Shown: positions 1-34,582, numbered from the stretch's first letter. The stretch is DNA of 34,582 nucleotides from an uncultured Mycoplasma sp. (GCA_964455135.1 CAYVXN010000001.1:1-34582); one strand, 5' to 3'. Notes: a model not told the origin generated them from the letters alone. Translations and numbers: made by a program.

Positions 1-10
1 GATTGGCATT

Positions 11-39
11 ATTATAACACTTTTGACTAAATTTGTCAA
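11..39 (-). promoter_or_regulatory. Consensus sigma-A-type promoter firing leftward out of the window
   Basis: The minus strand reads TTGACA (39-34), a 17-nt spacer, then TGT-TATAAT (19-11). That is a perfect -35, a perfect -10 and a TGn extension. The transcribed gene lies beyond position 1. Confidence 0.55.
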
Positions 40-217
40 ACTTTATTTGATTTGGGATGTAGTAAACTAGATGTGGGAATAAGATTTGTAGGTTTTTATG
101 ATTAATTTATGATAATGTCTTAAGTGTTAACTTGCAAAAATGTCTCGCTATTATATAATATATTTGGTTGATTGTTTTTTAAGGTTTATTGAAACTACTA
201 AAACAAAAAAAGAAATG

Positions 218-751
218 TTATTTTGTATATTTTTCAAACATTTCTTTTATATATAAACTATATTCAATATTTTCATTATTATTCTCTTCTGTTTCGAGTG
301 AACATAATGGTGGAAATAAGATGCACCACCAGTTATCTCCTTTTCCTTTGCCTAGTGTTACAAGTAATGATTCATACTCTCCTTCTTTGTATTTTACTCC
401 TTTATAAGTTTTTTCTGGAAAATAGTGATAACCATAATCTATTTTAAAGTTTTGATTTATATTTTCATTTTTAAGAACTTTTTGAATTGTTTTTTTATAA
501 TTATTTAGGTTGTTTTGAATTATTTTTCTTGAATTTTCTATTGTTTTTGTGTGGTTCAAGTCTTTTTCTATTTCTATTTCTAGATTTGTTTTTACTTGGT
601 TTTTGAGATATTGATCTTTTATATTGTTACTATTTGGTATTATTCTAATTCTTATTGATTTATCTGGAATTATATAATAATCTTCTTTGTATGCTCCTAT
701 TACGTTTATTAAAATAATTAATGATAATATAAAAAGAATAAGTTTTTTCAT
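218..751 (-). CDS. spoIIR: Stage II sporulation protein R (SpoIIR)
   Basis: 177 aa with an N-terminal signal/TM segment. IRIRIIPNSNN matches the SpoIIR IRLRILANSDS motif, and GKGDNWWCILFPPLC matches GDGANWWCVLFPPLC. It sits next to prfA-prmC as in B. subtilis. Confidence 0.9.
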   Translation of the reverse strand: MKKLILFILSLIILINVIGAYKEDYYIIPDKSIRIRIIPNSNNIKDQYLKNQVKTNLEIEIEKDLNHTKTIENSRKIIQNNLNNYKKTIQKVLKNENINQNFKIDYGYHYFPEKTYKGVKYKEGEYESLLVTLGKGKGDNWWCILFPPLCSLETEENNNENIEYSLYIKEMFEKYTK

Positions 752-797
752 TTAATCACCTATATAGTTAATGATACTTATTCTTAGATTTTATTCA

Positions 798-2003
798 TTA
801 TTTTTTTATGTATGCTGCAATAGTGGTATTATCTTTTCCTCCGTTTATTTTATTCATATAAATATCTGGATTATTTTTTATAGCTTTAACCGCTTGTCTT
901 TTTTCTTTTTTAGGAAGATTATCTATTGCTTTTTTTAAATAACTATCGTTTTGGATTGCGTAATTTACGATGTCAGAAGTCATTTTTTCTTTGTTTTTTG
1001 TCATCATTAAGTTTTCTAATTCTTTTTCACTTATACAGTCTGTAACTCCATCACTTACTGCGATTATTCTATCGTAACTTGTGTTTTTTATTATAGAATA
1101 TGATGGCTCTATTGATTCTTTTTGTTTACTAATGCTATTTGTTATTATGTTGCTGTTTCTGTTAAATCTCATTAATTCTTTGTTTGGAATCGCTTTTGTT
1201 TCAAACATTTTTTGTACTATTGAGTCATCTATTGTTTCTTGTATGATTTTTTGGTTTTTCATAGAATATACTCTTGAATCTCCAATATTTGTTATTAGAG
1301 TTTTATCTTTTCCTATTATGACTGCCGATAGTGTTGCAGATGCCTCTTTTGGAGCTTCTAAATCTTTTAAAATATATGGTAACATATTATTAAGAGATGT
1401 TTTTACTTGTTCTATGTCGTTATATAAATTTGGATTTAGATTTTCGAACCAACTGGTAAGTTTTGCAACTATATGACTACTTGCAAGTTCTCCGCCGGCA
1501 TTTCCTCCAACTCCATCTGATACTGCAAGTAATTTAAAATCGTTGTTTAAAGGGTGTTCTAAGATAATCACTGAATCTTCTTGGTTATTTCTTCTTTTTC
1601 CTACATCTTGAGTTGCATACATTGTATCTCCTAGACTATATTCGGAATGCATTAATTTTATTTGTTTTCCGAGAATGATATCTTCTTTACATCTGTTAAT
1701 TACTTTTTCATATATCTTTGTATTTGATATTTTTGTATTTGTTTGCTGACTTATTTTTTGGTCAAAATTTTGTATATTTTCTTTTGATTGATTTATTTTT
1801 TCAAGATAATTGTCTAATTCTTTGTTTGATAGTATTCTTGTTGAATTGGGACAAAAATATTCTTGTTTAAAACCTGGATATTTTTCTTCAATTTTGTTAA
1901 ATTCTTTTGATAAATTATTAGAGCTTATTAAGAATGATTCATTTTTATATACTACTAAAATTATTTGATCTTTATCTTTTATTCCTATTAATATTTTTTC
2001 CAT
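798..2003 (-). CDS. PP2C-family Ser/Thr protein phosphatase with an unrecognised ~130-aa N-terminal extension
   Basis: 401 aa. PP2C motifs are RRNNQEDS, AVSDGVGGNAGGELAS, AVSDGV and a C-terminal GGKDNTTIAAY. There is no TM segment and no adjacent kinase gene. Confidence 0.85.
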   Translation of the reverse strand: MEKILIGIKDKDQIILVVYKNESFLISSNNLSKEFNKIEEKYPGFKQEYFCPNSTRILSNKELDNYLEKINQSKENIQNFDQKISQQTNTKISNTKIYEKVINRCKEDIILGKQIKLMHSEYSLGDTMYATQDVGKRRNNQEDSVIILEHPLNNDFKLLAVSDGVGGNAGGELASSHIVAKLTSWFENLNPNLYNDIEQVKTSLNNMLPYILKDLEAPKEASATLSAVIIGKDKTLITNIGDSRVYSMKNQKIIQETIDDSIVQKMFETKAIPNKELMRFNRNSNIITNSISKQKESIEPSYSIIKNTSYDRIIAVSDGVTDCISEKELENLMMTKNKEKMTSDIVNYAIQNDSYLKKAIDNLPKKEKRQAVKAIKNNPDIYMNKINGGKDNTTIAAYIKK

Positions 2004-2027
2004 TTTACATCGCTTCCTATTGTAAAA

Positions 2028-2056
2028 ATTTTACTAAATTTTTTTGGGATTGTCAA
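2028..2056 (-). promoter_or_regulatory. Candidate sigma-A promoter for the PP2C-spoIIR pair
   Basis: The minus strand reads TTGACA (2056-2051), 17 nt, TAAAAT (2033-2028). The -35 overlaps the prmC TGA stop. An AGGAAG SD lies upstream of the ATG at 2003. Confidence 0.4.
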
Positions 2057-2871
2057 ATACTTACAGAGTATATATATCTGTCAAAACCATTGTAATCTTT
2101 TTTTATTATTACTTTGTCTTTTGGAAATTGTTTTTTGATTAGTTTTTCTATTTTTTCACCTTGATTTTCTCCTATTTCAAAAGCAATGATGTGTTTGTTT
2201 TTTGTGATGGTTTTTATGTCTTTTAGTATATTTCTGTAAAAGTCTAATCCATCTTTTCCTCCGAATAATGCTAGGTGTGGTTCATTTTTTATGACTTGTT
2301 TTTGTACTTGTTTTGAATTTTCATTTATATATGGAGGATTACTTATGATTATATCAAATTCATCTTTTATGTTTTTATATAAATCTGTGTTTATAAATTT
2401 TATATCTGTTTGATGAGTTTTTTGATTTTTTTTAGATACTTTTAGAGCTTTTTTTGATATATCTGTTGCTGTTATTTTTAGATTTTTATTTTCTTTATTT
2501 AGAGTTATTGCTATTATTCCAGAGCCTGTTCCTATATCTAATACTTTTAAGTTTTTATCTTTAAAATGTTTATCTATTAGAGTTAGTGTATCTTTTACTA
2601 AGGTTTCTGTTTCTGGTCTTGGAATTAAAACATTTTTATTAACAAAAAATTCTTCTCCATAGAAATAGGCTTTGTTTGTTATATATTGAATAGGTATATC
2701 TTTTTGAAGTTTTTTTATTATTTTTTGATAAGATTTATACTCTTTTTTTGTTAGTTTTCTTTCTTTGTTTAGAATAATTTCTGGTTTAGATAGATTTAAA
2801 ACTTGCTCTAAGGCAAGTTTTTTTTGTTCTTTTTCTATATTTTCTTCTTGTAATATTTCTTTAATCTTCAT
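2053..2871 (-). CDS. prmC: Release-factor glutamine N5-methyltransferase PrmC (HemK)
   Basis: 272 aa with the SAM motif LDIGTGSGIIA and the catalytic NPPY (ISNPPYI). It overlaps the prfA 3' end by 11 nt, the classical prfA-prmC pairing. Confidence 0.92.
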   Translation of the reverse strand: MKIKEILQEENIEKEQKKLALEQVLNLSKPEIILNKERKLTKKEYKSYQKIIKKLQKDIPIQYITNKAYFYGEEFFVNKNVLIPRPETETLVKDTLTLIDKHFKDKNLKVLDIGTGSGIIAITLNKENKNLKITATDISKKALKVSKKNQKTHQTDIKFINTDLYKNIKDEFDIIISNPPYINENSKQVQKQVIKNEPHLALFGGKDGLDFYRNILKDIKTITKNKHIIAFEIGENQGEKIEKLIKKQFPKDKVIIKKDYNGFDRYIYSVSI

Positions 2872-3922
2872 TTTCTTGTAACTTTCTTTTTTGATCTTCA
2901 GAGATTAGACTTTCTATTACTTCTTCTAATTCTCCTTCAATTATTCTATCTAATTTGTTTAGAGTTAATCCTATTCTGTGATCTGTTACTCTATTTTGAG
3001 GATAGTTGTAAGTTCTTATTTTTTCTGATCTATCTCCAGTTCCTATTTTGCTTCTTCTTTCTATTCCTGATTCTTCTTCTTGTTTTCTTTTTTGTTCTTC
3101 ATATATTTTTGATTTTAGAATTTGAAGTGCTTTTTCTTTGTTTTGCAACTGACTTCTTTCATTTTGACAAGTTACTACTATTCCTGTTGGTAAGTGTGTC
3201 ATTCTTACTGCTGAATCTGTAGTGTTTACTGATTGGCCCCCTGCTCCGCCACTTCTATAAACATCTACTTTGATGTCTTCAGGTTTTACTTCTATTTCTA
3301 CATTTTCTTCTTCAGGCATTACTATTACTGTTGCTGTTGAAGTATGGATTCTGCCACCAGACTCTGTTTGTGGAATTCTTTGAACTCTGTGAGCTCCACT
3401 TTCGTATTTTAATTTTGAATAAACACCCGTTCCTTTGATTAAACATTCTATTTGAGAGAAGCCTCCACTTGAAGATTCTTCAGCGTTTATTATTTCTATT
3501 TTCCAATTTTGCTTTTCTGAGTATCTTTGATACATTCTAAAAAGATCTCCGGCGAAGATATTAGCTTCATCTCCTCCGGCTGCTCCTCTTATTTCCATTA
3601 TGACGTTTTTTTCATCATTTTCATCTTTTGGAAGTAGTAGAATTTCTAATTTTGATTCTAAGTCTTGTTTTTGTTCTTCTAAAGATTTTAAATCTTCTTT
3701 AGCTATATCTTTTAATTCAGGATCTTTTAGTAGTTCTTCATCTTCTGTTATGTTTTTTAATACTTGTTTATATGTTCTATATAAAGATACTGTTTCTTCA
3801 AGACTACTTTGTTTTTTTGATAGTTCTGTTAATAAATTAACATTTTGAAGTGTTTCTGGCTTTGTTAATTCTTTTGTTAATTCTTCATATTTTTTTTCGA
3901 TATTTTCTAATCTATCTATCAT
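2861..3922 (-). CDS. prfA: Peptide chain release factor 1
   Basis: 353 aa with the GGQ motif (SGGAGGQSVNTTDSAVRMTHLPTG) and an RF1-type PxT loop (RIPQTESGGRIHTS). Confidence 0.97.
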   Translation of the reverse strand: MIDRLENIEKKYEELTKELTKPETLQNVNLLTELSKKQSSLEETVSLYRTYKQVLKNITEDEELLKDPELKDIAKEDLKSLEEQKQDLESKLEILLLPKDENDEKNVIMEIRGAAGGDEANIFAGDLFRMYQRYSEKQNWKIEIINAEESSSGGFSQIECLIKGTGVYSKLKYESGAHRVQRIPQTESGGRIHTSTATVIVMPEEENVEIEVKPEDIKVDVYRSGGAGGQSVNTTDSAVRMTHLPTGIVVTCQNERSQLQNKEKALQILKSKIYEEQKRKQEEESGIERRSKIGTGDRSEKIRTYNYPQNRVTDHRIGLTLNKLDRIIEGELEEVIESLISEDQKRKLQENED

Positions 3923-3933
3923 ATTATCACCTT

Positions 3934-4365
3934 CTAGTTTTCTTCTAGGCTATCTTCATCTACAATTACTAAGTTTTTATATTCCTCAGTTACATCTGAA
4001 ATATCATCATCTGTATCCTCTATAAAGGTTTCCTCTGGTTCTTTTTCCGTTTCTATATCATCATAATCTTCAATATCTTCTTCGTAATCTTCTAAGTCTT
4101 CTTCTAAAGTAATATTTGTGGATTTGTGGTTTTGTCTTAAATCCCAATTTCCGTTTTCAAGGAGAATGAATCTTTTATCGTTGGTTAGTGCAGTGTAAAA
4201 TTCCCCTATTTTACTTTCTAATGTACTTTTTGGTAGTTCTAACATTTCTACTATTTTACTAAATATCTCTAAAGTAGATTGTTCTTTTGTTTCTTTTAAT
4301 AAAAAAATTGCAATATCATTATAAGACATTAATTCTAAGTCTTCTTTTGTTAATTTTTTTGCCAT
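3934..4365 (-). CDS. rpoE: RNA polymerase delta subunit (RpoE)
   Basis: The N-terminal HARE-HTH-like region (MSYNDIAIFLLKE ... FYTALTNDKRFILLENGNWDLR) is followed by a long D/E-rich acidic tail. I prefer the ATG at 4365 (MAKKLTKEDL), which follows AAAGGGTG. The track start at 4389 has no SD. Confidence 0.85.
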   Translation of the reverse strand: MAKKLTKEDLELMSYNDIAIFLLKETKEQSTLEIFSKIVEMLELPKSTLESKIGEFYTALTNDKRFILLENGNWDLRQNHKSTNITLEEDLEDYEEDIEDYDDIETEKEPEETFIEDTDDDISDVTEEYKNLVIVDEDSLEEN

Positions 4366-4460
4366 AATTACACCCTTTCTTTTAATCATTATATGTTAAT
4401 ATATGTTATTGTTTCTTAGTATGTTTTAGGAAAATTGTTTTTTTCTCCTATCGATAATTA

Positions 4461-4489
4461 ATAATAACTTGTTTGTTATAATTAGTCAA
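4461..4489 (-). promoter_or_regulatory. Candidate promoter for rpoE-prfA-prmC
   Basis: The minus strand reads TTGACT (4489-4484), 17 nt, TATTAT (4466-4461). This would give a ~95-nt leader. Confidence 0.3.
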
Positions 4490-4524
4490 CGAAAAATTAG
4501 TGAAATGTCTATGAAATTTTTACT

Positions 4525-4884
4525 TTAAATTATTTTATATTCTATTTTTAGCTTAAATATGTCGTTTTCTATTTGATAAATTCCTATTATTTTGGTTTTT
4601 TCTTTGTTAAATTTGTTTATTTTTATTGGAAAAGTTGTGCTTTTGTTTTCTTGTTTTAAATGGTATTTTATTTGTTTATTTAGAAAATCTATATTCATTT
4701 CTATTTCTTCATTTTCTCTTGTTAAAATATTATTTTTGAGGTCAAAAGATATTTTTGTAATGTTATCATTGTTGTCTGTGCAGTGAATTATTTCATTATA
4801 TTTTGTACCATTATTATTTATTTTATATTCATTTACTTCTATGTATACTTTAATTTTTTGTATTTCTTTAATTAATTCTTTCAT
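4525..4884 (-). CDS. Hypothetical protein, possibly a DUF1934-like small beta-barrel
   Basis: 119 aa with a GGTGAT SD-like element before the ATG. Alternating hydrophobic beta-strand pattern. It has the A/C-ending codon style shared by all minus-strand genes here. The family assignment is only a guess. Confidence 0.55.
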   Translation of the reverse strand: MKELIKEIQKIKVYIEVNEYKINNNGTKYNEIIHCTDNNDNITKISFDLKNNILTRENEEIEMNIDFLNKQIKYHLKQENKSTTFPIKINKFNKEKTKIIGIYQIENDIFKLKIEYKII

Positions 4885-4981
4885 GTCATCACCATTTCAG
4901 TAGGATTATAGCATATCTTTTGATTATTTTACATATTTTTTTGATTTTTTTTCATACTAATTCTAGAAAAGGAGCCTTGTT

Positions 4982-6931
4982 ATGAAAACTAAAGTTTGTA
5001 AAATTACTATTAAATGTATGCTTGTTTTGATATTTGTTTTTATTTGTTTTAATTTGATAGGGTTTTTGTATGCTGTTATAACTCCAAAACTTGATATTAG
5101 TGATGCTAATGCATTTTCTGTTTATGATAATAAAAAAAATCTTGTTTTTCAAGGAAATGGAAATGATTCTTGGGTTTCTTTAAGTGATATGAATGATAAT
5201 ATTATTAATGCTACAATTAGTGTTGAAGATAAAAATTTTTATAAACATTGGGGATTTGATTTTCCTAGAATTGCTAAAGCTCTTTTGGTTAATATTGCTT
5301 CTGGTCAGGTAGAGCAGGGGGCTTCTTCTATTACACAGCAATATGCTAAAAACTTGTTTTTAGATTTTGAAAAGTCTTGGTCTAGAAAATGGAAGGAAAT
5401 GTGGCTTACTTATGAACTTGAGGCTCATTATACTAAGGATGAAATTTTAGAAGGTTATCTTAATACTATTAATTATGGTCATGGAATGTATGGAATTAGT
5501 AATGCTAGCAAGTATTATTTTAATAAGGATGTTAAGGATCTTACTTTAGCTGAGGCTTCTATACTTGCAGGTATTCCAAATAGTCCTTCTGATTATTCTC
5601 CGATTGATAATTATGAACTGTCTAAAAAACGACAAAATGTGGTGTTGGAGAGAATGTATAATAATGATTATATAAATGAGCGTGAAAGGGATAATGCTTA
5701 TGATGTTAAACTTGTTTTTAAAAATGATGAGTTTGGAAATGATCTTACTTCACTTATTTATTATAACGATGCTGTTATGAATGAGCTTAATAGTTTAGAT
5801 AGCATTCCTAGTAGTTATTTGGATACTGGCAATATTAAAATTTATACTACTTTAGATGTCGATGCTCAAAAATCATTAGAAAAGGGACTGAAAGAGAATG
5901 CTACTGATGATAGAGTAGAGACTTCAAAAATAATGATGAATCCAAATAATGGGGGAATTATTGCATTAATTGGGGGAATTAATTATGGAAAAAGTCAGTT
6001 TAATCGTGCTATTAATTCTTATAGACAACCTGGTTCTACGTTAAAACCTTTTTTGTATTATAAAGCTATTGAAAATGGTTTTACTGCTAGTACTACATTT
6101 TTTAGTAAAGAAACTAGTTTTTATTTTGATAATAAAAAGACATATTCTCCGAAAAATTATGGTAATATTTACGCTAACAAAGAAATTTCTCTTGCCGCTG
6201 CAATTGCTTATTCTGATAATATTTATGCTGTTAAAACTCATTTGTTTTTAGGAGAAGATGAATTATATAATACACTAAAAAAGGGTGGGCTTACTTCAAA
6301 AATTGATAAATCTCCTTCGCTTGCTTTGGGTACGTATGAGGTTAATATAATGGAATTATCTGCTTTGTATTCTGCTCTTAGTAATGGTGGTAAAAAAGTA
6401 GAGCCTCATTTAATTTCTAAGGTGGTTGATAAAAATGGAAATGTTTTATATGAATATGAGAAAAAAAAAGAGGAAATTATTTTTAATAGTGATGTTACTT
6501 TTATTATTAGTGAACTTCTTACAGGAACTTATGATTTTAATTTAATTGATTATACTTATCCAACTTGCATAAGTATGGCACCTAATATTACTAATAAATA
6601 CGCTATTAAAACAGGAAGTACTGATACTGATTCTTGGGTTGTTGGTTATACTCCAGAAGTTGTTTTTGCTTCTTGGGCTGGTTACGATGATAGTTCTGAT
6701 ATTTCAACTGATGTTACTATTGGTAATAAAAAATCTTGGATTACTACTATGGAAGAATTTTTTAAAAATAAAGAAGCAACTTGGTATAAAGTGCCAGAGG
6801 ATGTAGTAGGGGTTTTAGTTAATCCGATTACTGGTAATGTTGTTAGTAGTGATAAAGAAAATAAAAAAATTTTATATTATTTAGAGGGTACTGAACCGAT
6901 TAGAGAGGAGAAAAGTTATGATAAGACGTAA
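4982..6931 (+). CDS. Class A penicillin-binding protein (bifunctional glycosyltransferase/transpeptidase)
   Basis: 649 aa with an N-terminal TM anchor. GT51 motifs are EDKNFYKHWGFD and GASSITQQYAKN. Transpeptidase motifs are STLK (SxxK), SDN and KTGST. An AAAGGAG SD precedes the ATG. Confidence 0.95.
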   Translation: MKTKVCKITIKCMLVLIFVFICFNLIGFLYAVITPKLDISDANAFSVYDNKKNLVFQGNGNDSWVSLSDMNDNIINATISVEDKNFYKHWGFDFPRIAKALLVNIASGQVEQGASSITQQYAKNLFLDFEKSWSRKWKEMWLTYELEAHYTKDEILEGYLNTINYGHGMYGISNASKYYFNKDVKDLTLAEASILAGIPNSPSDYSPIDNYELSKKRQNVVLERMYNNDYINERERDNAYDVKLVFKNDEFGNDLTSLIYYNDAVMNELNSLDSIPSSYLDTGNIKIYTTLDVDAQKSLEKGLKENATDDRVETSKIMMNPNNGGIIALIGGINYGKSQFNRAINSYRQPGSTLKPFLYYKAIENGFTASTTFFSKETSFYFDNKKTYSPKNYGNIYANKEISLAAAIAYSDNIYAVKTHLFLGEDELYNTLKKGGLTSKIDKSPSLALGTYEVNIMELSALYSALSNGGKKVEPHLISKVVDKNGNVLYEYEKKKEEIIFNSDVTFIISELLTGTYDFNLIDYTYPTCISMAPNITNKYAIKTGSTDTDSWVVGYTPEVVFASWAGYDDSSDISTDVTIGNKKSWITTMEEFFKNKEATWYKVPEDVVGVLVNPITGNVVSSDKENKKILYYLEGTEPIREEKSYDKT

Positions 6932-7088
6932 GGATGACGATAGTATAAATCGTGAATATTTGTATTATTTAATGAATGATATTGGACTTTTAAATGATTA
7001 TGAACTTTACGAAGCTGGTATAACTTTTGATGAATTTGATAATCCTGATGATGAAGTTTTGGAAAAACTTGAGGATTATAGAGATAAG
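6918..7088 (+). CDS. Small acidic hypothetical protein (56 aa), below the ORF-track cutoff
   Basis: ATG at 6918 lies 7 nt after GGAG (6907-6910) and overlaps the PBP stop by 14 nt. Translation: MIRRKDDDSINREYLYYLMNDIGLLNDYELYEAGITFDEFDNPDDEVLEKLEDYKR. It has the G/T-ending codon style of plus-strand genes and is followed by a strong terminator. Confidence 0.55.
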
Positions 7089-7117
7089 CAAAGTTAAAAT
7101 AATTTTTGTTGTTTATA

Positions 7118-7153
7118 AAAAAAATTGGATTATGTTAGATCCAATTTTTTTTA
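7118..7153. terminator. Bidirectional intrinsic terminator between the small ORF (+) and typA (-)
   Basis: AATTGGAT (7124-7131) pairs with ATCCAATT (7140-7147) around an 8-nt loop. An A-run on the left and a T-run on the right supply a U-tract on either strand. Confidence 0.7.
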
Positions 7154-7176
7154 TTTTGTTAATCTTTTTGTAAAAA

Positions 7177-8973
7177 TTATTTTTTATTTCTATATCTTTC
7201 TTTATCGTCTAAAATCTTTTTTCTAAGTCTAATAGCCTCTGGGGTTACTTCAACAAGTTCATCATCTTCGATAAATTCTAAGGCTTCTTCTAATGTAAAT
7301 ATTTTAGGTTTAATTAGAGTAAGAGCTTCGTCTGATCCTGCTGCTCTTGTATTAGTAAGTTGTTTGTTTTTACAAGGGTTAACATTTAAGTCATTGTCAC
7401 GATTATGAATTCCAATTATCATTCCTTTATATACATCGACACTTGGCCCTACAAGCATTGTACCTCTGTCACTTAGATTAAATAGGGAATATGCCATAGT
7501 TTTACCATCTTCCATTGATACTAAAACACCGTTTTTTCTTCTTTTTATGAAACCAACGTATGGTTTAAAACTATGAAAACTTCTTACCATGATACCTTCG
7601 CCTTTAGTATTGGTAATAAAACTACTGCGATATCCTATTAATCCTCGAGTAGGAACTAGGAAGGTAAGTTTAGTATAATTATCATCATTTGTAACAGATT
7701 CCATTATTCCTTTTCTTTCGTTTAAGTCATTTATAATTGTACCAGCATATTCATTTGGACAATTTATTAATACTTCTTCGAAAGGTTCGCATTTTATGTT
7801 ATCTATTTCTTTAAATAATACTTCTGGTTTTGAAACACTAAGTTCATATCCTTCACGACGCATATTTTCAAGAAGAATAGATAAGTGAAGTTCTCCACGT
7901 CCTGATACTTTATATCCATCGCTGTCTTTTAATTCTTCAACTTTTAATCCTACATTTGTTTCTAGTTCTCTATCTAGTCTTTCTTTGATATGACGATTTG
8001 TTAGAAATTTACCACTTTTACCAGCAAATGGTGAGGAATTTACTAAGAAATTCATAGAAAGAGTAGGTTCTTCAATAATAATAGGGTCAAGTGGAATTAT
8101 ATTATCTTTGTCACAAATTGTATCTCCAACTTTAATGTCTGGAGATGATGCTGTTATTACTATGTCACCATATCTTGCTTCTTTAACTTCTTTTCTTTTT
8201 ATTCCTTCGTTTACAAAAATTTTGTTAATTCTTACATTTTCTGTAGTACCATCATTTTTACTAATTGCTACCATCATGCCTGTTTTTATAATTCCTTTAG
8301 TTATTCTTCCAATTCCAAGTCTTCCTAAATAGTCATCATAAGAAAGTGATGATATTTGAAGTTGTAATGGATCTGTTTCTGTTCCTTCGAGTAGCTTTGT
8401 ATTTTCTATGACTGTATCAAGAAGAGGAAAAATGCTACTACTTTCATCTTCTAAATTTATTTTTGCTATTCCTTGTTTTGCTATTCCATATACGATAGGA
8501 AAATCAAGTTGTTTGTCATTTGCATTAAGTTCTACAAATAAATCAAAAGTCATATTTACTACATCATCTATTCTAGCATCTTTTTTATCTATTTTATTGA
8601 TAAAAAGAATAGGGTTTAAGTTGTTTTTTAGTGCTTGTTCTAATACGAATCTTGTTTGTGGCATTACTCCTTCTTTTGAATCAACCATTAGTATTACTGT
8701 ATCTACTGTTTTTATGATTCTTTCTACTTCTGATGAAAAATCTGCGTGTCCTGGAGTGTCTACTATATTTATTTTGTAATCTTTATATCTTATTGAACAA
8801 TTTTTTGAATAAATTGTTATCCCACGTTCTTTTTCTAGATCATTGCTATCCATTATTTGATGAGTTTCTAATTCTTTTTCTAGGGCGCCACACTGAGAAA
8901 GTAAAGCATCTACTAAGGTACTTTTTCCTACGTCAACGTGTGCTACTACTGCTATGTTTAATATTTTATCCAT
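7177..8973 (-). CDS. typA: Translational GTPase TypA/BipA
   Basis: 598 aa. Motifs are AHVDVGKSTLVDALL, MDSNDLEKERGITI, DTPGHADF, NKIDK and the BipA-specific C-terminal domain. Confidence 0.96.
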   Translation of the reverse strand: MDKILNIAVVAHVDVGKSTLVDALLSQCGALEKELETHQIMDSNDLEKERGITIYSKNCSIRYKDYKINIVDTPGHADFSSEVERIIKTVDTVILMVDSKEGVMPQTRFVLEQALKNNLNPILFINKIDKKDARIDDVVNMTFDLFVELNANDKQLDFPIVYGIAKQGIAKINLEDESSSIFPLLDTVIENTKLLEGTETDPLQLQISSLSYDDYLGRLGIGRITKGIIKTGMMVAISKNDGTTENVRINKIFVNEGIKRKEVKEARYGDIVITASSPDIKVGDTICDKDNIIPLDPIIIEEPTLSMNFLVNSSPFAGKSGKFLTNRHIKERLDRELETNVGLKVEELKDSDGYKVSGRGELHLSILLENMRREGYELSVSKPEVLFKEIDNIKCEPFEEVLINCPNEYAGTIINDLNERKGIMESVTNDDNYTKLTFLVPTRGLIGYRSSFITNTKGEGIMVRSFHSFKPYVGFIKRRKNGVLVSMEDGKTMAYSLFNLSDRGTMLVGPSVDVYKGMIIGIHNRDNDLNVNPCKNKQLTNTRAAGSDEALTLIKPKIFTLEEALEFIEDDELVEVTPEAIRLRKKILDDKERYRNKK

Positions 8974-9002
8974 TTTTACATCTCCCTTGCATAGACCTTC
9001 AC

Positions 9003-9031
9003 ATTATACCAAATGTTGGTGTTTTATGCAA
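9003..9031 (-). promoter_or_regulatory. Sigma-A promoter of typA
   Basis: The minus strand reads TTGCAT (9031-9026), 17 nt, TGG-TATAAT (9008-9003), with a TGn extension. It lies ~25 nt upstream of an AGGGAG SD and the typA ATG. Confidence 0.6.
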
Positions 9032-9143
9032 CATAAAGTTTTTGTTATTTAATATTATAAAAAAATAAAAAAGATATAATTAAAAAATAAATAAATTGTT
9101 TTAAAACTTATACTTATTCGTTTAATTTATCTTTTTTGTTCTA

Positions 9144-10472: not shown

Positions 10473-10474
10473 GT

Positions 10475-12448: not shown

Positions 12449-12459
12449 GTTTTACTTTT

Positions 12460-23277: not shown

Positions 23278-23308
23278 TTTTTTTGCCTCCTTTAATGAAA
23301 AAAGAAGA

Positions 23309-24842: not shown

Positions 24843-24843
24843 A

Positions 24844-25176: not shown

Positions 25177-25195
25177 TGTTACCTCCATAATCAAA

Positions 25196-25215
25196 AATCC
25201 ACTTTTTAGTGGATT
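25196..25215 (-). terminator. Hairpin between rpmH and rnpA (partial terminator or processing signal)
   Basis: AATCCACT pairs with AGTGGATT around a 4-nt loop, a perfect 8-bp stem. It starts 2 nt after the rpmH stop. The minus-strand RNA continues UUUUGA. Confidence 0.45.
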
Positions 25216-25216
25216 A

Positions 25217-25342
25217 CTATTTTGATAAGTTTTTTCTTCCTTTTCTTCTTCTTTTATTAATAATTCCAGATTTCATACGTGAGAAAAAACCATGTTTTTT
25301 CTTCATTCTTCGATTATTTGGTTGAAAAGTTCCTTTTTTCAC
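25217..25342 (-). CDS. rpmH: 50S ribosomal protein L34 (not in ORF track; GTG start)
   Basis: Hand translation gives (M)KKGTFQPNNRRMKKKHGFFSRMKSGIINKRRRKGRKNLSK, 41 aa. The TFQPNN...HGF..RM...GR..L..RR.KGRK signature is L34. GGAGGTG lies 7 nt upstream of the GTG. Confidence 0.9.
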   Translation of the reverse strand: MKKGTFQPNNRRMKKKHGFFSRMKSGIINKRRRKGRKNLSK

Positions 25343-25373
25343 TTCTTGCACCTCCAGTCAATTTATCGGTATT

Positions 25374-25403
25374 ATTGTATATGAAAAACTAGTTATTTGT
25401 CAA
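25374..25403 (-). promoter_or_regulatory. Candidate rpmH promoter
   Basis: The minus strand reads TTGACA (25403-25398), 18 nt, TACAAT (25379-25374). Confidence 0.45.
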
Positions 25404-25411
25404 TATTTTTT

Positions 25412-25570
25412 GAGTTATTAACAAAATTAACGTTAATTAACTTTTTAACTATTAACAATTGTTAATTTGTTAATAAAAAAATTGTTGAAATTTGTTAAAA
25501 AGTATTTTATAGTATTGTGATAAAAGGAAATTGACTGTTGATAAGTCTGTTAATAAGTCTGTTAATAACT
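25412..25570. promoter_or_regulatory. oriC part 1: DnaA-box cluster upstream of dnaA
   Basis: Perfect TTATTAACA sits at 25415-25423. Perfect reverse boxes TGTTAATAA sit at 25468-25476, 25548-25556 and 25560-25568, and TGTTGATAA at 25536-25544. The last three form a 12-bp tandem array, CTGTTGATAAGT CTGTTAATAAGT CTGTTAATAACT. Several 7-8/9 boxes lie in between. Confidence 0.8.
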
Positions 25571-25649
25571 TTTTTCACTTTTCAAAAATTAAAAATTGTA
25601 TTACAATTGTTTTAGGTTGTAAATACTTTATAGATGGGGAGATGGTATT

Positions 25650-27026
25650 ATGGATAACAATTTGTTGTGGCAAAAAGTATTAGATAATATCAGTAATATC
25701 GTTGATCCTTTATCTTTTGAAACTTGGTTTAAGAATATTGATTTTATTGGTATTGTAGATGATAAAATAAGACTTGTTATTCCTATTATGTGGTATAAGA
25801 GTCATATTGAACAAAACTATAAGGATATTATTTTAAATAGTTTTAATAACTTATTAACAAGTCCTGTTGATAGTATTATCTATATTTTAAAGGATAACGT
25901 TGAAGATGTTTTGGAGCGGGATAAAGAAAAGAATATTTCTAGTGTCAGTATACCTAATTCTTCTAATTATGCTTTAAATCATGAATCTAATTTGAAGAAA
26001 AATTATACTTTTGAAAATTTTATTGTTGGGGAATCTAATAAATTTGCTCAAGCTGCTGCGCTTGCTGTTGCTGAAAATCCTGGAACTATGTATAATCCTT
26101 TGTTTATTTATGGTAATAGTGGTCTTGGTAAAACTCATTTGATGCATGCTATTGGTAATTATATTGAAACTAAATATAAGAAAAAAGTATTGTATGTTAC
26201 TAGTGATGATTTTATGAATGATTTTACTGGACTTGCTAGAAAAAACAATAATGTTAACAATTTGGATTATGTTGAGTTTTTTAAGAATAAATATAGGAAT
26301 GTTGATGTTCTTTTAATAGATGATATTCAGTTTTTAGGAGGAGCAGAAAAGACTCAGCAAGAGTTTTTCCACACTTTTAACAATTTATATAATGATAGTA
26401 AACAAATTATTGTTTCTTCTGATAGGTCTCCGGAAGATTTAAAAGTGCTTGAAGATAGACTTAGGACTCGTTTTGCTTGGGGGCTTCAAGTTGATATTAG
26501 TCCTCCAGATTATTCTCTTAAAGTTGCTATTATTAAGAATAAATTAAAAAGAGAGAATATTGTTATTGGAGAAGATGTTATTTCTTATATTGCTTCAAAT
26601 ATTGGTAATGATGTTAGACAACTTGAGGGTTCTATTACTAGACTTGTTGCATATTCTGCTATTATGTGTGAAAATAATATTACTTTAGAATTTGCTATGG
26701 AAGCTTTAAGAGACTTCACTAAAAGGGATGCTGTTACTGATCAAAATGATATAAGACGTATTCAAAAGAGTGTAGCTAATTTTTATAATATTTCTTTTGA
26801 AGATATGAAATCTAAGAAAAGAACTCCAAATCTTGCTATTCCTAGACAGGTTGCTATGTATTTGTGTAGAAAGCTTACTGATGAGTCTTTTGAGAGAATA
26901 GGGATAGAGTTTTCTGGAAAAAATCATGCTACTGTTATTCATGCTTGTAATAAAATTGAAAATGAGATGAAAATTAATAAAGATTTAAATGATGCAATTG
27001 TTAATATTGAGAAGCAATTAACATAA
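25650..27026 (+). CDS. dnaA: Chromosomal replication initiator protein DnaA
   Basis: 458 aa. AAA+ Walker A GNSGLGKTHLMHAIGN, Walker B LLIDDIQF, and sensor/arginine-finger blocks. The domain IV signature reads KNHATVIHA where the canonical sequence is RDHTTVIHA. Confidence 0.98.
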   Translation: MDNNLLWQKVLDNISNIVDPLSFETWFKNIDFIGIVDDKIRLVIPIMWYKSHIEQNYKDIILNSFNNLLTSPVDSIIYILKDNVEDVLERDKEKNISSVSIPNSSNYALNHESNLKKNYTFENFIVGESNKFAQAAALAVAENPGTMYNPLFIYGNSGLGKTHLMHAIGNYIETKYKKKVLYVTSDDFMNDFTGLARKNNNVNNLDYVEFFKNKYRNVDVLLIDDIQFLGGAEKTQQEFFHTFNNLYNDSKQIIVSSDRSPEDLKVLEDRLRTRFAWGLQVDISPPDYSLKVAIIKNKLKRENIVIGEDVISYIASNIGNDVRQLEGSITRLVAYSAIMCENNITLEFAMEALRDFTKRDAVTDQNDIRRIQKSVANFYNISFEDMKSKKRTPNLAIPRQVAMYLCRKLTDESFERIGIEFSGKNHATVIHACNKIENEMKINKDLNDAIVNIEKQLT

Positions 27027-27038
27027 TTTTGTTAAAAT

Positions 27039-27150
27039 TGTTGATAGATATTAACAAGAAAAAGAGATATTAACTGTTGATATATAAGGGCTTTGTGAGT
27101 TATTAACATTATTAACAGTAATAATATAAATAATATAATAATAAAAAAAG
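27039..27150. promoter_or_regulatory. oriC part 2: DnaA boxes plus an A-centred triplet array / AT-rich unwinding candidate between dnaA and dnaN
   Basis: TGTTGATAG abuts ATATTAACA at 27039-27056, and TGTTGATAT sits at 27075-27083. Two abutting perfect TTATTAACA boxes occupy 27100-27117. After one G come 10 successive triplets (27119-27148: TAA TAA TAT AAA TAA TAT AAT AAT AAA AAA), all with a central A. Confidence 0.75.
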
Positions 27151-27166
27151 AAAGAAGGTTTTAAAA

Positions 27167-28285
27167 ATGAAATTAAAAATTAAAAGATTAGTCTTGTTAG
27201 AAGCTTTAAATAATGTTGCTAAAGCTATATCTAGTAAGAATATTATACCAATATTATCTGGAATTAAGTTTGAACTTAGTAAAGAAAAACTTGTTATTAC
27301 AGCTTCAGATAATGATATTACTATTCAAACTGTTATTAATAAGGGAGATAATTTAATAATAGAAGGTACTGGTAATATAGTTATTAAAGGTAAATATATT
27401 TTAGATATTATTAGGAAACTTGAAGCAGATTTTATAAATATAGAAATAATTGATGATCATAAGATTATGATATTCACAGAAAACAGTGAATTTAATCTTA
27501 ATGGTATTGATGCTAAAGAATTTCCTGATATAGATTTAGAGTTGTCTCCTGATTTTGTAAGTATGAGTATTTCTTCTTTTAAATCTTTGATTACTCAAAC
27601 AAATTATGCTTGTTCTTTGGATGAAGCAAGGGTAGTGTTAACAGGAGTTAACATAAAAATAAATGATGATAATTTAGAATGTAGTGCAACTGATTCTTAT
27701 AGACTTGCTTTAAAAAAACATAAATTAACAAAGAGTGTTAATAATTCTGCTGATATTATAATTCCTAGTAAGAATTTGTCTGAACTTTTGAAATTACTTA
27801 CTTCTTCTGATGATGAATCTATTGAAATGCATTTATTTAGTAATAAAGTAATTTTTAAGTTTAATAATATTTTATTTCAATCTAGGCTTATTAACGGAAC
27901 TTATCCTAATACTAAGAATTTAATACCTAGTGAATCGTTATTTGATTTGAAGCTTGATACTAATGAATTTTATAGTATGGTTGATAGAGCTAGTATTTTA
28001 AATAATGATAATGATAATAATATAATTACCTTAGAAATTAAGAACAATCTTCTTAAGATAACTTCTATGTCTTTAGAAATTGGTAAAGTTGAAGAAAAGA
28101 TGAGTGTTGATTGTAATAATAGTATTAAAATTTCTTTTAGTGCTAAATATATGATGGATGCTCTCCGTACTATAAATTCTAAGAATGTAGTTTTAACTTT
28201 TGTTGGAGAAATAAAACCTATTTTGCTTAATAATGATGATAGCGAAGATCTTGTGTGTTTAATTTTACCTATAAGAACTTATTAA
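27167..28285 (+). CDS. dnaN: DNA polymerase III beta sliding clamp
   Basis: 372 aa with a three-domain clamp. N-terminus MKLKIKRLVLLEALNNVAKAISSKNIIPILSGIKFEL and C-terminal LILPIRTY. GAAGG SD. Confidence 0.96.
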   Translation: MKLKIKRLVLLEALNNVAKAISSKNIIPILSGIKFELSKEKLVITASDNDITIQTVINKGDNLIIEGTGNIVIKGKYILDIIRKLEADFINIEIIDDHKIMIFTENSEFNLNGIDAKEFPDIDLELSPDFVSMSISSFKSLITQTNYACSLDEARVVLTGVNIKINDDNLECSATDSYRLALKKHKLTKSVNNSADIIIPSKNLSELLKLLTSSDDESIEMHLFSNKVIFKFNNILFQSRLINGTYPNTKNLIPSESLFDLKLDTNEFYSMVDRASILNNDNDNNIITLEIKNNLLKITSMSLEIGKVEEKMSVDCNNSIKISFSAKYMMDALRTINSKNVVLTFVGEIKPILLNNDDSEDLVCLILPIRTY

Positions 28286-28311
28286 CAATTGTTGTTGATA
28301 AGTTTTTTTTT
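28278..28311 (+). terminator. Intrinsic terminator of dnaN, built from two convergent DnaA boxes
   Basis: CTTATTAACAA (28278-28288) pairs with TTGTTGATAAG (28292-28302): an 11-bp stem with one G-U pair and a 3-nt loop, followed by T9. The arms contain TTATTAACA and TGTTGATAA. Confidence 0.75.
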
Positions 28312-28350
28312 GTAAACTTTTTGTTTATTTTAAACGCAAATTTTCTTTTT

Positions 28351-28384
28351 TAGTTTTTATCGACATATTTCTAGTTTTTTCGAC
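28351..28384 (+). repeat. Phased direct repeat TAGTTTTT(A)TCGAC x2 upstream of the ComK-family gene
   Basis: The copies lie at 28351-28364 and 28372-28384, 21 bp apart (two helical turns). The cores ATCGACA and TTCGACT each match 6 of 7 positions of the Spo0A box TTCGACA. Confidence 0.3.
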
Positions 28385-28455
28385 TTTTGTTTATGTTAAT
28401 TTAAAAATTGTAACATTTTTTGTTGCGAAATTTGTATTTTGAGGGGGTGAATTTT

Positions 28456-28911
28456 ATGAAGTATGAGATTAATGACGAGACACTTGCTATACTGCCTTTT
28501 GATAAAGATAAGGCTAGGGTTTTAGAAGAATCTGATGAATATATTGTTGATGAGATTCCTTATTCTATTATGGAAGACTCTTGTAAGTATTTTGGTAGTA
28601 GTTTTGAAGGTAGAATACTTGGTTCTAAAAATATTTTAGGTAGTGTTTATAAGGCTCCGATTATTGTTGAAGAATCACAAAACTTGATCTTTTTTCCTAC
28701 CGAAGCTCTTAGTTCTAATACTGTTTCTTGGATTTCTTATAAAAAGATAAAAAGTGTTGAAAAATGTGGTAAAAGGTCTAAAATTATTTTTAATAATGGT
28801 GAGTCAATTATTGCTAATTGTCCATATTTTTCTATCAAGAATCAGATATTTAGATGTAATATGTTAGATTCTATTTCTAGTAATAGAAAAATAGTGAAAA
28901 AAAACGATTAA
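28456..28911 (+). CDS. comK: ComK-family transcription factor
   Basis: 151 aa from the ATG at 28456, which follows GAGGGGGTG. YEINDETLAILP, SCKYFGSSFEGR, KAPIIVEESQNLIFFPT, WISY and FNNGESI...S..NQIFR parallel B. subtilis ComK blocks YEVNGATIAVLP, SCRFFGSSYAGR, KPPIMVDPSNQIFLFPT, WISH and FSNGKTM. It is shorter than B. subtilis ComK at the C-terminus. Confidence 0.85.
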   Translation: MKYEINDETLAILPFDKDKARVLEESDEYIVDEIPYSIMEDSCKYFGSSFEGRILGSKNILGSVYKAPIIVEESQNLIFFPTEALSSNTVSWISYKKIKSVEKCGKRSKIIFNNGESIIANCPYFSIKNQIFRCNMLDSISSNRKIVKKND

Positions 28912-28934
28912 AAAGTGTAAAATCGTTTTTTTTT
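28901..28934 (+). terminator. Intrinsic terminator after the ComK-family gene
   Basis: AAAACGATT (28901-28909, including the stop codon) pairs with AATCGTTTT (28921-28929) around an 11-nt loop, followed by a T-run to 28934. Confidence 0.6.
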
Positions 28935-28945
28935 AGGGCTTTTTG

Positions 28946-28954
28946 TGGTATAAT
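28946..28954 (+). promoter_or_regulatory. Extended -10 element upstream of recF
   Basis: TGG-TATAAT (TGn plus a perfect -10) about 75 nt upstream of recF. There is no recognisable -35. Confidence 0.35.
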
Positions 28955-29027
28955 GTAATAGTAAGTACTGGAGTACTAGGTTTTGGAGTTGATGCAAATT
29001 TGAGGGAATTAAATTTAAATTTTAAAT

Positions 29028-32043
<3,016 letters not shown>

Positions 32044-32052
32044 GAGGTTATT

Positions 32053-34503
32053 ATGGATAGATTAAAGGAAAATAATATTGTTGATGAAGTTAAGAAGTCA
32101 TTTTTGGATTATTCTATGAGTGTTATTGTATCTCGTGCACTTCCTGATCTTCGTGATGGTCTTAAACCTGTACATAGACGTATTTTGTATTCTATGTTTG
32201 ATTCTGGATATACTCCGGATAAGGGTCATCGTAAATGTGCTAGAATTGTTGGGGATGTAATGGGAAAATATCACCCTCATGGTGATAGTTCCATTTATGA
32301 AGCTATGGTTAGGATGGCTCAGGATTTTAGTTATCGTTATATGCTTGTAGATGGCCATGGTAACTTTGGTAATATGGATGGCGATGGTGCTGCGGCAATG
32401 CGTTATACTGAGGCTCGTCTTTCTAAGATTAGTTTGGAACTTCTTCGTGATTTGAATAAGAACACTGTTGATTTTGCTCCAAACTTTGATGAGGAAGAGA
32501 AGGAACCGGTTGTTTTACCTAGTAGATTTCCTAATATTTTGGTTAATGGTACTATGGGTATTGCTGTTGGTATGGCTACTAATATTCCACCACACAATTT
32601 ACGTGAAGTTATTAATGGTTGTATTGCTTATATTGATAATAATGAGATTACTTTGGATGAGTTGATGCAACATATTAAGGGTCCTGATTTTCCTACTGGT
32701 GCGATTATTCTTGGCAATAGTGGTATTCGTAAGGCTTATGAGACTGGTAGGGGTACTATTACTGTTAGGTGTCGTGCATCTATTGATGAAAGTGGCTCTA
32801 AAAGTAGGATAGTTATTTCTGAGATTCCTTATGGTCTTAATACTATGGATCTTAAGAATCGTATTGCTTCTTTAGTTAGGGATAAGGTTCTTGAGGGTAT
32901 TGCTGATTATCATGAGGAAAATGATACGGATTTTGGTGTTAAGATTGTTATTACGCTTAAGAAGGATGCTAATGCTAATGTTGTTCTTAATAATTTGTAT
33001 AAGCATACTCAGCTTCAAAATACTTTTGGTATTATTCTTCTTATGCTTGATCAGGGTGTTCCTAAGTTACTTGGTTTAAAGGATATTATTTCTAAGTATG
33101 TTGATCATCAAAGGGAAGTTGTTATTCGTAGGACTAAGTTTGATTTGGATAAGGCTCTTGCTAAGGCTCATATTTTGGAGGGTTATAAGATTGCTCTTGA
33201 TCATTTGGATGATTTTATTAAGATTATTCGTGAGAGTGAAAGTGATGTTATTGCGAAGGACAGGCTTAAATCTTCTTATGGTATAAGTGATGCTCAAGCT
33301 GATGCTATTTTGGAACTTAGACTTCGTAGGCTTACTGGTCTTGAAAGGGAAAAGATTGAGAGAGATTTGGAGGAAACTCTTAAACTTATTGAGGATCTTC
33401 GTGGTATTTTGGTTAGTGATGACAGGGTTAATGATATTATTAAGTCTGAGATGAGAGAAATTGCTGATAAGTATGGTGATGATAGGAGAACTTCTATTGA
33501 TATGACTGCGATTGATTATATTGAGGATGAGTCTTTGATTCCAAATGATAGTGTTATTGTTTCTATGACTAAGAATGGTTATATTAAGCGTTTGGTTTCT
33601 GATACTTATAGGAGTCAACATCGTGGTGGTGTTGGTATTAAGGGAATGGCTACTAATGATGAGGATCAGGTTGATATGTTAATAAGTTGTTCTACTCATG
33701 ATTATTTGTTATTCTTTAGTAATTATGGTAAGGTTTATCGTATAAAATGTTATGAACTTCCGGAATTTAGCAGACAGTCCAAGGGAGTGCCAATTGTTAA
33801 TATCTTACCTTTGGAGAAAAATGAGTATGTTAATGCTATTATTCCTGTTGAAAAGGATGATATTTGTAAGAATTTGATGTTCTTTACTAGGAATGGTTTG
33901 GTTAAGAGAACAGAGATTTCTGAGTTTGATTCTATTCGTAAGAATGGTAAGATCGCTATTACGTTGAAGGATGGAGATGAACTTACTAGTGTTAAGAAGA
34001 CTACTGGTGATGATGAGGTAATTATGGCATCTAATTCTGGTAGGATGGTTAGGTTTAATGAGAATGAAGTAAGAGTTATGGGTCGTAGTGCTTCTGGTGT
34101 TAAGGGTATTGATATGAATGACGGATGTGTAATTGGTGCTGAAATTGTTAATAACTCTGAACTTATTTTGGTTGTTACTGAAAAGGGTTATGGTAAGAAG
34201 ACTGCTGTTGATGAGTATCGTTTGACACATCGTGGTAGTAAGGGTGTTAAGGCTCTTAATATTACTGATAAGAATGGATTAATTGTTGCATTTAAGTCTG
34301 TTGTTGGTGATGAGGATATTATTATTACTACTGATGAGGGTACTGTGATTAGATTAGATGTTTCTAATGTATCTACTTTGAGACGTAATACCCAAGGTGT
34401 TAGGCTTATGAATTTGAAGGATAAGCAAGTTGTTACTTCTGTTACTGTTGTTAGTAAGGAAGAAAGTGATAATGATGATAATAATGTTCAAGATACTGAG
34501 TAA
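32053..34503 (+). CDS. gyrA: DNA gyrase subunit A
   Basis: 816 aa. Motifs are [20 protein letters not shown], the QRDR region [18 protein letters not shown], the catalytic AAMRYTE tyrosine, and the C-terminal beta-pinwheel with GyrA-box-like [18 protein letters not shown] precedes the ATG. Confidence 0.98.
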
Positions 34504-34532
34504 TGTTTCACGTGAAACATTACTTTTTTTTT
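34501..34532 (+). terminator. Intrinsic terminator of gyrA
   Basis: TAATGTTTCAC pairs with GTGAAACATTA, a perfect 22-nt palindrome starting in the stop codon, followed by CTTTTTTTTT. Confidence 0.8.
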
Positions 34533-34556
34533 ATGGGGATTAGTCTATTTTTTAAT

Positions 34557-34575
34557 TGTTAATAAGTGTTAATAA
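34557..34575. promoter_or_regulatory. Pair of perfect DnaA boxes downstream of gyrA
   Basis: TGTTAATAA at 34557-34565 and 34567-34575 (10-bp phasing). GTTAATAACTTTT is identical to 25561-25573 in the oriC upstream cluster. The window ends 7 nt later. Confidence 0.5.
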
Positions 34576-34582
34576 CTTTTAC

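Follow-up and report, generated by a model that had tools for sequence, protein, structure and literature searches.

Does the strand polarity of silent sites change sign at a chromosomal replication origin that looks intact? The question is raised by a stretch of 34,582 nucleotides from an uncultured Mycoplasma sp. (GCA_964455135.1, CAYVXN010000001.1:1-34582), hereafter the window, which has a G+C content of 27-28% and the gene neighbourhood of a classical Firmicutes-type chromosome origin region, with dnaA at 25650..27026 on the plus strand. A preliminary description, based on third codon positions counted by hand in parts of a few genes, had proposed that codon style in the window follows the coding strand and not the side of dnaA, the plus-strand polarity running through oriC without a flip. 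The counts were extended here to complete genes, to neighbouring DNA of the same species and to related genomes. At synonymous sites the plus strand is rich in G and T on both flanks of dnaA, and a replication fork crossing both flanks from left to right is the account towards which we lean.

Silent-site composition around dnaA and its mutational basis

Third-position bases were counted over complete genes, 22 on the minus strand between 218 and 25194 and seven on the plus strand. Read on its own coding strand, every minus-strand gene has A3>T3 and C3>G3 (22/22; AT skew at third positions, AT3, +0.12 to +0.54; GC skew at third positions, GC3, -0.07 to -0.74), whereas the plus-strand genes (PBP1A, dnaA, dnaN, a ComK-like gene, recF, gyrB and gyrA) uniformly have T3>A3 and G3>C3 (7/7; AT3 -0.31 to -0.69, GC3 +0.59 to +0.84). 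Four-fold degenerate sites agree with third positions in both gene sets, and the full-gene counts agree with the contrast first seen by hand; minus-strand genes with T3>A3 and G3>C3 were looked for, and 0/22 were found. PBP1A (4982..6931; PBP_1a family), the sole plus-strand gene left of dnaA, has the right-hand style (A154 T398 G85 C12; GC3 +0.75, AT3 -0.44), from which it follows that codon style tracks the strand and not the side of dnaA, as had been proposed.

The same division is visible in the codon dialects, and the contrasts in Lys, Ile and Leu codons described earlier hold for the whole gene sets: AAG supplies 4% of Lys codons in minus-strand genes versus 51% in plus-strand genes, ATA 65% versus 17% of Ile codons, and TTG 2% versus 26% of Leu codons. 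Comparable differences separate the two sets for Ala (GCA 67% versus 16%; GCT 22% versus 79%), Thr (ACA 64% versus 11%) and Arg (AGG 2% versus 27%). Recoding of AGG to Met has been reported in some uncultured Bacilli (PMC8629427); the codon table, in which conserved Met/Arg positions were not tested, gives no sign of it, ATG being well used and AGG tracking the other G-ending codons.

Plus-strand totals for third positions are A2167 C313 G853 T4568 to the left of dnaA (GC skew +0.46, TA skew +0.36) and A528 C69 G476 T1753 to its right (GC skew +0.75, TA skew +0.54), which bears out the absence of a flip. At third and four-fold sites the cumulative curves of G-C and T-A climb monotonically along the whole window, from a minimum at about 224-284 to a maximum at about 34350-34500, with no extremum or sign change at dnaA; an extremum at 25.3-27.2 kb was looked for specifically, and synonymous sites have none. 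Over all sites, GC skew does show a kink near 25 kb, with its cumulative minimum at 17994, and G-C at first positions reaches an extremum at 25267; the reason is that coding sequence, which is purine-rich, moves to the other strand at this point. A conventional GC-skew plot therefore still points to dnaA, hiding the anomaly.

The genes jag and especially yidC (23309-24842; equivalents in loci L010-L018, L042, L050 and L081) have GC3 nearer to zero, or positive, compared with their neighbours, and typical AT3. The shift is probably gene-specific, since yidC also shifts, if less strongly, in other clades; much less probably, it reflects a very short tract replicated leftward.

Amino-acid-changing sites are affected as well. 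Codon positions 1 and 2 of the same gene sets shift reciprocally between clades: left-flank genes have a GC skew of 0.148 in the clade of the window, against 0.212 in normal lineages and 0.256 where polarity is opposite (the clade described below), and the corresponding values for right-flank genes are 0.274, 0.239 and 0.217. The spectrum of single-nucleotide polymorphisms (SNPs) was taken from third-position singletons among five strains of the window species, polarised by majority rule and few in number (166 in total); an all-site spectrum was dropped as confounded by codon position. On the plus strand, A>G singletons occur at 11.7 per 1000 A sites versus 3.7 per 1000 T sites for T>C, in the same sense on the left (10.7 versus 4.2) and right (13.1 versus 3.3) flanks, and A>T (4.8) and G>T (8.2) exceed T>A (1.1) and C>A (2.5). 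The singletons, and the changes seen at the first two codon positions, indicate that the cause of the skew is mutational and ongoing. The pressure is towards G/T on the plus strand and towards C/A on its complement, and is felt at synonymous sites and, less strongly, where the amino acid changes. The lineage-specific mutational asymmetry put forward in the preliminary description gains support in one respect, the trait being lineage-specific and mutational, but alone it fails to explain a polarity that continues across the origin.

Reach and inheritance of the polarity

Beyond the window, the same species has 10 genes (including murA, rpmE and mreB) in the adjoining 10 kb to the left, all of A/C style, and genes of G/T style (tadA, dnaX, recR, holB, pth and mfd) in the adjoining 10 kb to the right. 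The polarity stays uniform for at least 54 kb here and, in a sister species, for about 110 kb; a skew switch sought up to 35 kb left and up to 19 kb right of dnaA in the window species was not found.

Sister-species contigs were read as segments of up to 22 kb; longer contigs exist, of 334-569 kb in relatives from the window's clade and up to 985 kb in the CAG:611 lineage. The L018 locus of one sister species has dnaA on the same contig (164,761 bp) as uvrB, with uvrB 57.5 kb to the left and directed away from dnaA, and the walk beyond uvrB was made by joining contigs of the same species through the linking proteins ValS and RNase R (99% identical). From dnaA outward the order is uvrB, uvrA, lgt, trxB, valS, rpsL-rpsG-fusA-tuf, secG, rnr, smpB and an integrase island linked to the transfer-messenger RNA (tmRNA) gene, then infC-rpmI-rplT, rpsB-tsf, frr, dinB, pgk-tpiA and spo0A, reaching about 99.5 kb from dnaA. 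Over this stretch all native left-pointing genes have GC3 of -0.14 to -0.87 and AT3 of +0.24 to +0.69, and native genes on the opposite strand have GC3 of +0.73 to +0.89; among the relatives overall, every native opposite-strand gene in the left flank has GC3 of +0.45 to +0.89. A second species, on a 334-kb contig, has the same pattern to about 100 kb, a distance inferred from synteny. No skew switch was found to about 100 kb left of dnaA in these two sister species, in which rpsL-rpsG-fusA-tuf, infC-rpmI-rplT and rpsB-tsf are directed away from dnaA, yet have lagging-type composition.

Foreign islands in relatives, namely the tmRNA-linked integrase element (L173 13000-18500) and a block with RelA/SpoT-like and radical-SAM genes (L182 10987-19900), have approximately zero third-position skew amid fully skewed native genes. 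Their near-zero skew implies that the skew is made in place and needs time to build, and such islands could serve as a clock for its accumulation.

Third-position skew on both flanks of dnaA was measured in 80 related loci and mapped onto a DnaA tree. Throughout the window's clade (DnaA 75-98% identical), the dnaA-sense strand is G/T-rich on both flanks, and in a second monophyletic clade, including Mycoplasma sp. CAG:776 and Candidatus Caccenecus, the opposite strand is always G-rich on both flanks. Other lineages flip weakly at dnaA or are intermediate, the latter (such as L037, L042, L046 and L050) with a left flank near zero and a right flank of +0.4 to +0.6. Plus-strand skew was decomposed into an offset and a term of alternating sign that flips at dnaA. 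This flipping term, largely a coding-strand effect, was 0.1-0.3 in every lineage, and the offset ranged from -0.64 to +0.66; strong skew flipping at dnaA is absent from all sampled lineages. The polarity is thus heritable by clade, occurs with both signs among uncultured gut Bacilli, and is missing from more distant relatives. Synteny within the order is fluid.

The Mycoplasma sp. CAG:611 lineage (L099, L101, L103 and L186) is a fairly close relative (MraY-like protein 77% and MurA 70% identical) with a rearranged, co-oriented run clpC-cysS-sigH-rpsF-ssb-rpsR-rplI-dnaC-mraY-murA-mreB. In L099-L103 and L186 a modest excess of G3 over C3 (about +0.3 to +0.5) is found with no AT3 skew, a pattern set aside as uninterpretable in loci not placed relative to dnaA.

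Origin elements and gene content

The variant DnaA box TTATTAACA is present in 17 exact copies in the window against 2.1 expected, with clusters at 25415-25568 and 27100-27117, and appears to be the DnaA box of this lineage. The canonical box TTATCCACA was tried in that role and gave, with at most one mismatch, 11 matches against 11 expected; it was replaced by TTATTAACA. The opposite-polarity clade retains canonical boxes. By motif counts, the rpmH-dnaA spacer (25346..25649) holds TTATTAACA or TGTTAATAA at 25415, 25468, 25548 and 25560, and TGTTGATAA at 25536. In the 140-bp dnaA-dnaN spacer (27027..27166), two tandem TTATTAACA boxes (27100-27117) are followed by a 31-nucleotide pure A/T run, a layout resembling that of a DNA-unwinding element. 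This bipartite arrangement is kept in polar and normal clades alike, with a spacer of 115-153 bp, 0-4 boxes and an A/T run of 14-44 nucleotides. Further sites of the TTATTAACA type occur at 28279-28301 and 34557-34575.

A perfect parS palindrome, TGTTTCACGTGAAACA, at 34504-34519 is the first of 10 parS-like sites within 1.5 kb 3' of gyrA (L005 12452-13990). Its first members lie at the start of the gyrA-ffs intergenic region, at the window's right-hand end (34504..34582), and the cluster runs on past the window; it is interleaved with tandem TGTTAATAA DnaA-box-like repeats (two at 34557-34575), and it flanks the signal recognition particle (SRP) RNA gene and tadA. No parS was found elsewhere in the approximately 54 kb around dnaA, nor in the scanned left-flank loci of relatives (about 47-100 kb from dnaA). 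The cluster lies in the same place downstream of gyrA in all clades, with 1-14 copies; copy number was considered as a correlate of polarity and discarded, since the two are not cleanly related: L056, with 14 copies, has an offset of about 0.

Gene orientation in the window diverges at dnaA, with 22/23 open reading frames (ORFs) of at least 80 aa to the left on the minus strand, as is rpmH (44 codons), and 6/6 to the right on the plus strand. Gene identities were checked against NCBIfam, and an Rfam scan of the window gave zero matches. By gene calls, NCBIfam and codon counts, the left block (218..25345, minus strand) comprises 23 genes of A/C-ending, lagging-type style, all directed away from dnaA; from left to right these are spoIIR, PP2C, prmC, prfA, rpoE (RNA polymerase delta), a hypothetical gene, typA, a second hypothetical gene, MBL, murC and ychF, followed by abgT, mscS, parB, parA, a noc-like gene, rsmG, mnmG, mnmE, jag, yidC, rnpA and rpmH. 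On the plus strand, dnaA (TIGR00362, 506 bits; GC3 +0.61, AT3 -0.46) is of G/T-ending style, as is the leading-type right block of dnaN, the ComK-like ORF, recF, gyrB and gyrA (27167..34503; GC3 +0.59 to +0.84, AT3 -0.31 to -0.69).

Two ParB paralogues are encoded on the minus strand, an ordinary 292-aa ParB adjoining parA (16150-17028) and a 443-aa Noc-like protein (17908-19239), of which the N-terminal 200 residues match Noc/ParB and the long C-terminal part is without assignment. The ORF between dnaN and recF (28420-28911, plus strand) was placed in the ComK family by Pfam PF06338 on the called 151-aa product, and NCBIfam gave no match for it; in Bacillus subtilis this position is occupied by a small gene for an S4-like RNA-binding protein. 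Neither NCBIfam nor the recorded Pfam results give a match for two conserved minus-strand ORFs, 4525-4884 (119 aa) and 9144-10478 (444 aa). Sporulation genes are present, spoIIR in the window (218-751) and spo0A and cotE in sister species (L179 11966-12739; L181 14812-15357), as are the peptidoglycan genes PBP1A, murC, murA and mreB, in a lineage often labelled Mycoplasma or Tenericutes in public records.

The nearest genomes are uncultured gut metagenome-assembled genomes (MAGs) labelled Bacilli, Tenericutes or "Mycoplasma sp. CAG", the best being a Bacilli MAG with 98% DnaA identity, and many metagenome contigs of up to 85 kb carry proteins identical to those of the window. A metagenome scan returned relatives at no more than 87% identity, the window's own species not being among the matches. 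No fewer than four independent assemblies bridge the rnpA-dnaA junction, which rules out misassembly as the source of the arrangement. One strain (L005 508-1167) has an insert of about 1.1 kb in the mnmE-jag interval (window ~23277-23309), with two small ORFs of near-neutral skew; its absence from the window represents strain-level variation beside the origin.

Fork direction, rival explanations and known systems

The two flanks of dnaA mirror each other in gene direction, and would also do so in fork direction if forks left from dnaA, yet they are opposite in coding-strand composition. A process set by local fork and gene direction alone is therefore insufficient, and a chromosome-wide polarity is needed, of which fork direction is the only established kind. 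We consider it somewhat the likelier case that both flanks are replicated by a fork moving the same way, left to right in the window. The plus strand would then be leading-type throughout and the rpmH-to-spoIIR block replicated head-on, as would be the str, infC and rpsB-tsf operons in relatives, and the opposite-polarity sister clade would be the mirror case. Replication from this oriC might in effect run one way, or be strongly asymmetric, with the origin next to the terminus; alternatively, the site of initiation might lie leftward by more than 35 kb, and in relatives by about 100 kb or more, the dnaA-linked boxes being kept for regulation. These two variants are inseparable here and carry roughly equal weight. 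The preliminary description had raised a fork that crosses the whole window, owing either to a functional origin beyond position 1 or to unidirectional or asymmetric replication from this oriC, and this is partly supported. One fork direction remains the only established symmetry-breaking mechanism, and the pattern runs on past position 1, for 10 kb in this species and to about 100 kb left of dnaA in a sister species; on the other side stand the conserved oriC, the gene runs directed away from dnaA and the lack of a switch within reach.

Several observations weigh against a single fork direction. After coding-strand correction the skew amplitude is equal on both flanks (about 0.6), with no step or gradient at dnaA. 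Gene orientation diverges exactly at dnaA in all clades, and in the window's clade nearly all native gene runs to about 100 kb left are directed away from it, including rpsL-rpsG-fusA-tuf, infC-rpmI-rplT, rpsB-tsf-frr, pgk-tpiA and rpsP. Such orientation is the expected product of a working bidirectional origin at dnaA, and Firmicutes-type genomes do not usually keep such genes head-on over the long term. That the oriC-like architecture is equally kept in polar and flipping clades weighs against the variant with distant initiation; one architecture with both polarities also means that direction is not set by oriC layout, which tells against the simple form of the unidirectional variant. Retained origin elements, together with the lack of a switch within about 100 kb, speak against a remote origin. 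The fork direction is itself a reading of composition. Strand-displacement replication from this oriC was rejected on the amplitude without step or gradient at dnaA, and inversion scenarios were rejected on logic, because orientation and composition move together.

Were replication ordinarily bidirectional from the dnaA-linked oriC, the polar skew would have to come from another process that treats the same physical strand differently chromosome-wide, for example recurrent single-strand exposure in unidirectional transfer or rolling-circle copying, or biased template-strand inheritance. We know of no such process established for bacterial chromosomes, and judge this account unlikely, though deserving of serious attention. 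It would accommodate the conservation in all clades of the bipartite oriC (boxes, spacer of about 140 bp, A/T run), the conserved parS cluster next to gyrA, and the divergence of orientation at dnaA with translation-gene operons within 50-100 kb directed away. A flipping term of 0.1-0.3 everywhere beside an offset of -0.64 to +0.66, with no strong flipping skew, likewise suggests a separate, added phenomenon, and the rRNA genes of UBA1400 Microgenomates also lie on the C-rich strand. However, it has no known mechanism, it must have arisen with opposite polarity in two clades, and the pairing of keto (G+T) against amino (A+C) bases, with an A>G excess on the G/T-rich strand, is a signature of replication-linked single-strand damage.

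If present replication and mutation were instead symmetric, the skew would be a slowly decaying, non-equilibrium relic of a past rearrangement or replication regime, for which intermediate lineages such as L037, L042, L046 and L050 and the fluid synteny in the order might speak. This is very improbable: the pattern is saturated and common to species with DnaA only 75-87% identical, singleton SNPs reveal asymmetry arising now on both flanks, recent islands are unskewed beside fully skewed native genes, and inversions should be unable to turn leading-strand ancestors into left-pointing genes of A/C style. An artefact or gene-specific effect, whether chance, translational selection, horizontally acquired blocks or a chimeric assembly at dnaA, has an almost negligible likelihood. 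Skews are somewhat damped in the highly expressed tuf, fusA and rpsG and in yidC/jag; the strand rule is nevertheless obeyed by 29/29 window genes, recurs in dozens of independent assemblies and species (at least four spanning the rnpA-dnaA junction), and holds in core housekeeping genes of conserved synteny, the same orthologues adopting opposite styles in the two clades. Such a reading is effectively refuted.

Tentatively, and with rather more doubt than confidence, we suggest that whole clades of abundant, uncultured gut Bacilli have either essentially one-direction replication of the main chromosome or a novel chromosome-wide, strand-specific mutation process, with opposite polarities, a retained canonical dnaA-oriC, and ribosomal-protein and elongation-factor operons kept permanently on the lagging-type strand. 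In that case, either the Firmicutes-type rule of co-orientation for highly expressed genes or the rule that skew reports fork direction would fail in a natural lineage. Origin placement relies on GC/TA skew, gene orientation and DnaA-box clusters, which are normally concordant; here they conflict over 100 kb or more, a discordance that recurs throughout one clade and appears in mirror image in its sister. If the fork truly crosses dnaA one way, head-on str, infC and rpsB-tsf operons have long been tolerated, which bears on the strength of selection against replication-transcription conflicts; if replication is bidirectional, skew need not record fork direction in every case, with consequences for origin prediction, skew-based assembly checks and the inference of inversions. 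Standard GC-skew tools would miss the anomaly owing to the all-site kink at dnaA, and the organisms are common in public gut metagenomes.

In Borrelia burgdorferi, and also in Lawsonia, Chlamydia and others, codon dialects match a bidirectional replicon's leading and lagging strands and change strand at the origin. The lineage described here shares with Borrelia the G/T-ending and A/C-ending dialects set by the strand of the gene, and an effect on amino-acid composition, and differs in having no dialect swap at dnaA. The geometry proposed here resembles the displacement of oriC from dnaA in Escherichia coli and relatives; in K-12, oriC (3,925,744-3,925,975) and dnaA (3,882,326-3,883,729) are 42 kb apart and rpmH-mnmE is directed toward oriC. 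There the two flanks of dnaA are replicated one way, with rpmH-rnpA-yidC-mnmE head-on, as they would be here. In E. coli, however, dnaN adjoins dnaA directly, spacer and unwinding element both being absent, and those genes that are closer to oriC (atp, rsmG, mnmG) are re-oriented, leaving only a few core genes head-on. The present lineage has kept its spacer, boxes and A/T run, would have no less than about 100 kb in head-on orientation, and yielded no alternative origin within reach. As a compositional control E. coli was discarded, its GC3 contrast being negligible (+0.012 versus +0.014) and too weak for the purpose, so it was used for geometry only.

Closer compositional parallels are found in replicons with skew of a single sign. 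In UBA1400 Microgenomates (Ch65, Candidatus Collierbacteria and Candidatus Beckwithbacteria), G/C disparity extends over the whole chromosome with a monotonic cumulative GC skew, for which adjacent origin and terminus or unidirectional theta replication were proposed, not demonstrated (Kadnikov et al., 2020, PMC7143001). Both there and here, one strand is compositionally distinct without inversion, either strand carries genes whatever the skew, those that are highly expressed lie on the C-rich strand, and the trait is common to related lineages and missing from a more distant one. The differences are that the UBA1400 genomes are closed, whereas about 54-110 kb around dnaA is covered here; that they have no AT disparity, whereas TA skew is here as strong as GC skew; and that the present lineage has a canonical Firmicutes-type rpmH-dnaA-dnaN origin, strongly divergent gene orientation and sister clades of opposite polarity. 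Reading one-signed GC skew as unidirectional, Xie et al. (2021, PMC7858055) predicted 77 such cases among 16,103 large replicons, a few of them in Firmicutes. In the window, too, cumulative synonymous-site skew runs monotonically through the initiator-gene region. The unidirectionally replicating chromids of Pseudoalteromonas and the replicons of that survey are mainly plasmid-derived and secondary, with plasmid-type initiators, in contrast to the main chromosome considered here, with dnaA, gyrAB and ribosomal protein genes. Strand disparity over a whole replicon and origins displaced from dnaA are already known, and no report for a genome of this kind was found in searches of the open-access literature. 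What is distinctive here is a sporulating, Firmicutes-type chromosome that combines a canonical oriC and strongly divergent gene orientation with translation operons of lagging type and sister clades that are mirror images of each other.

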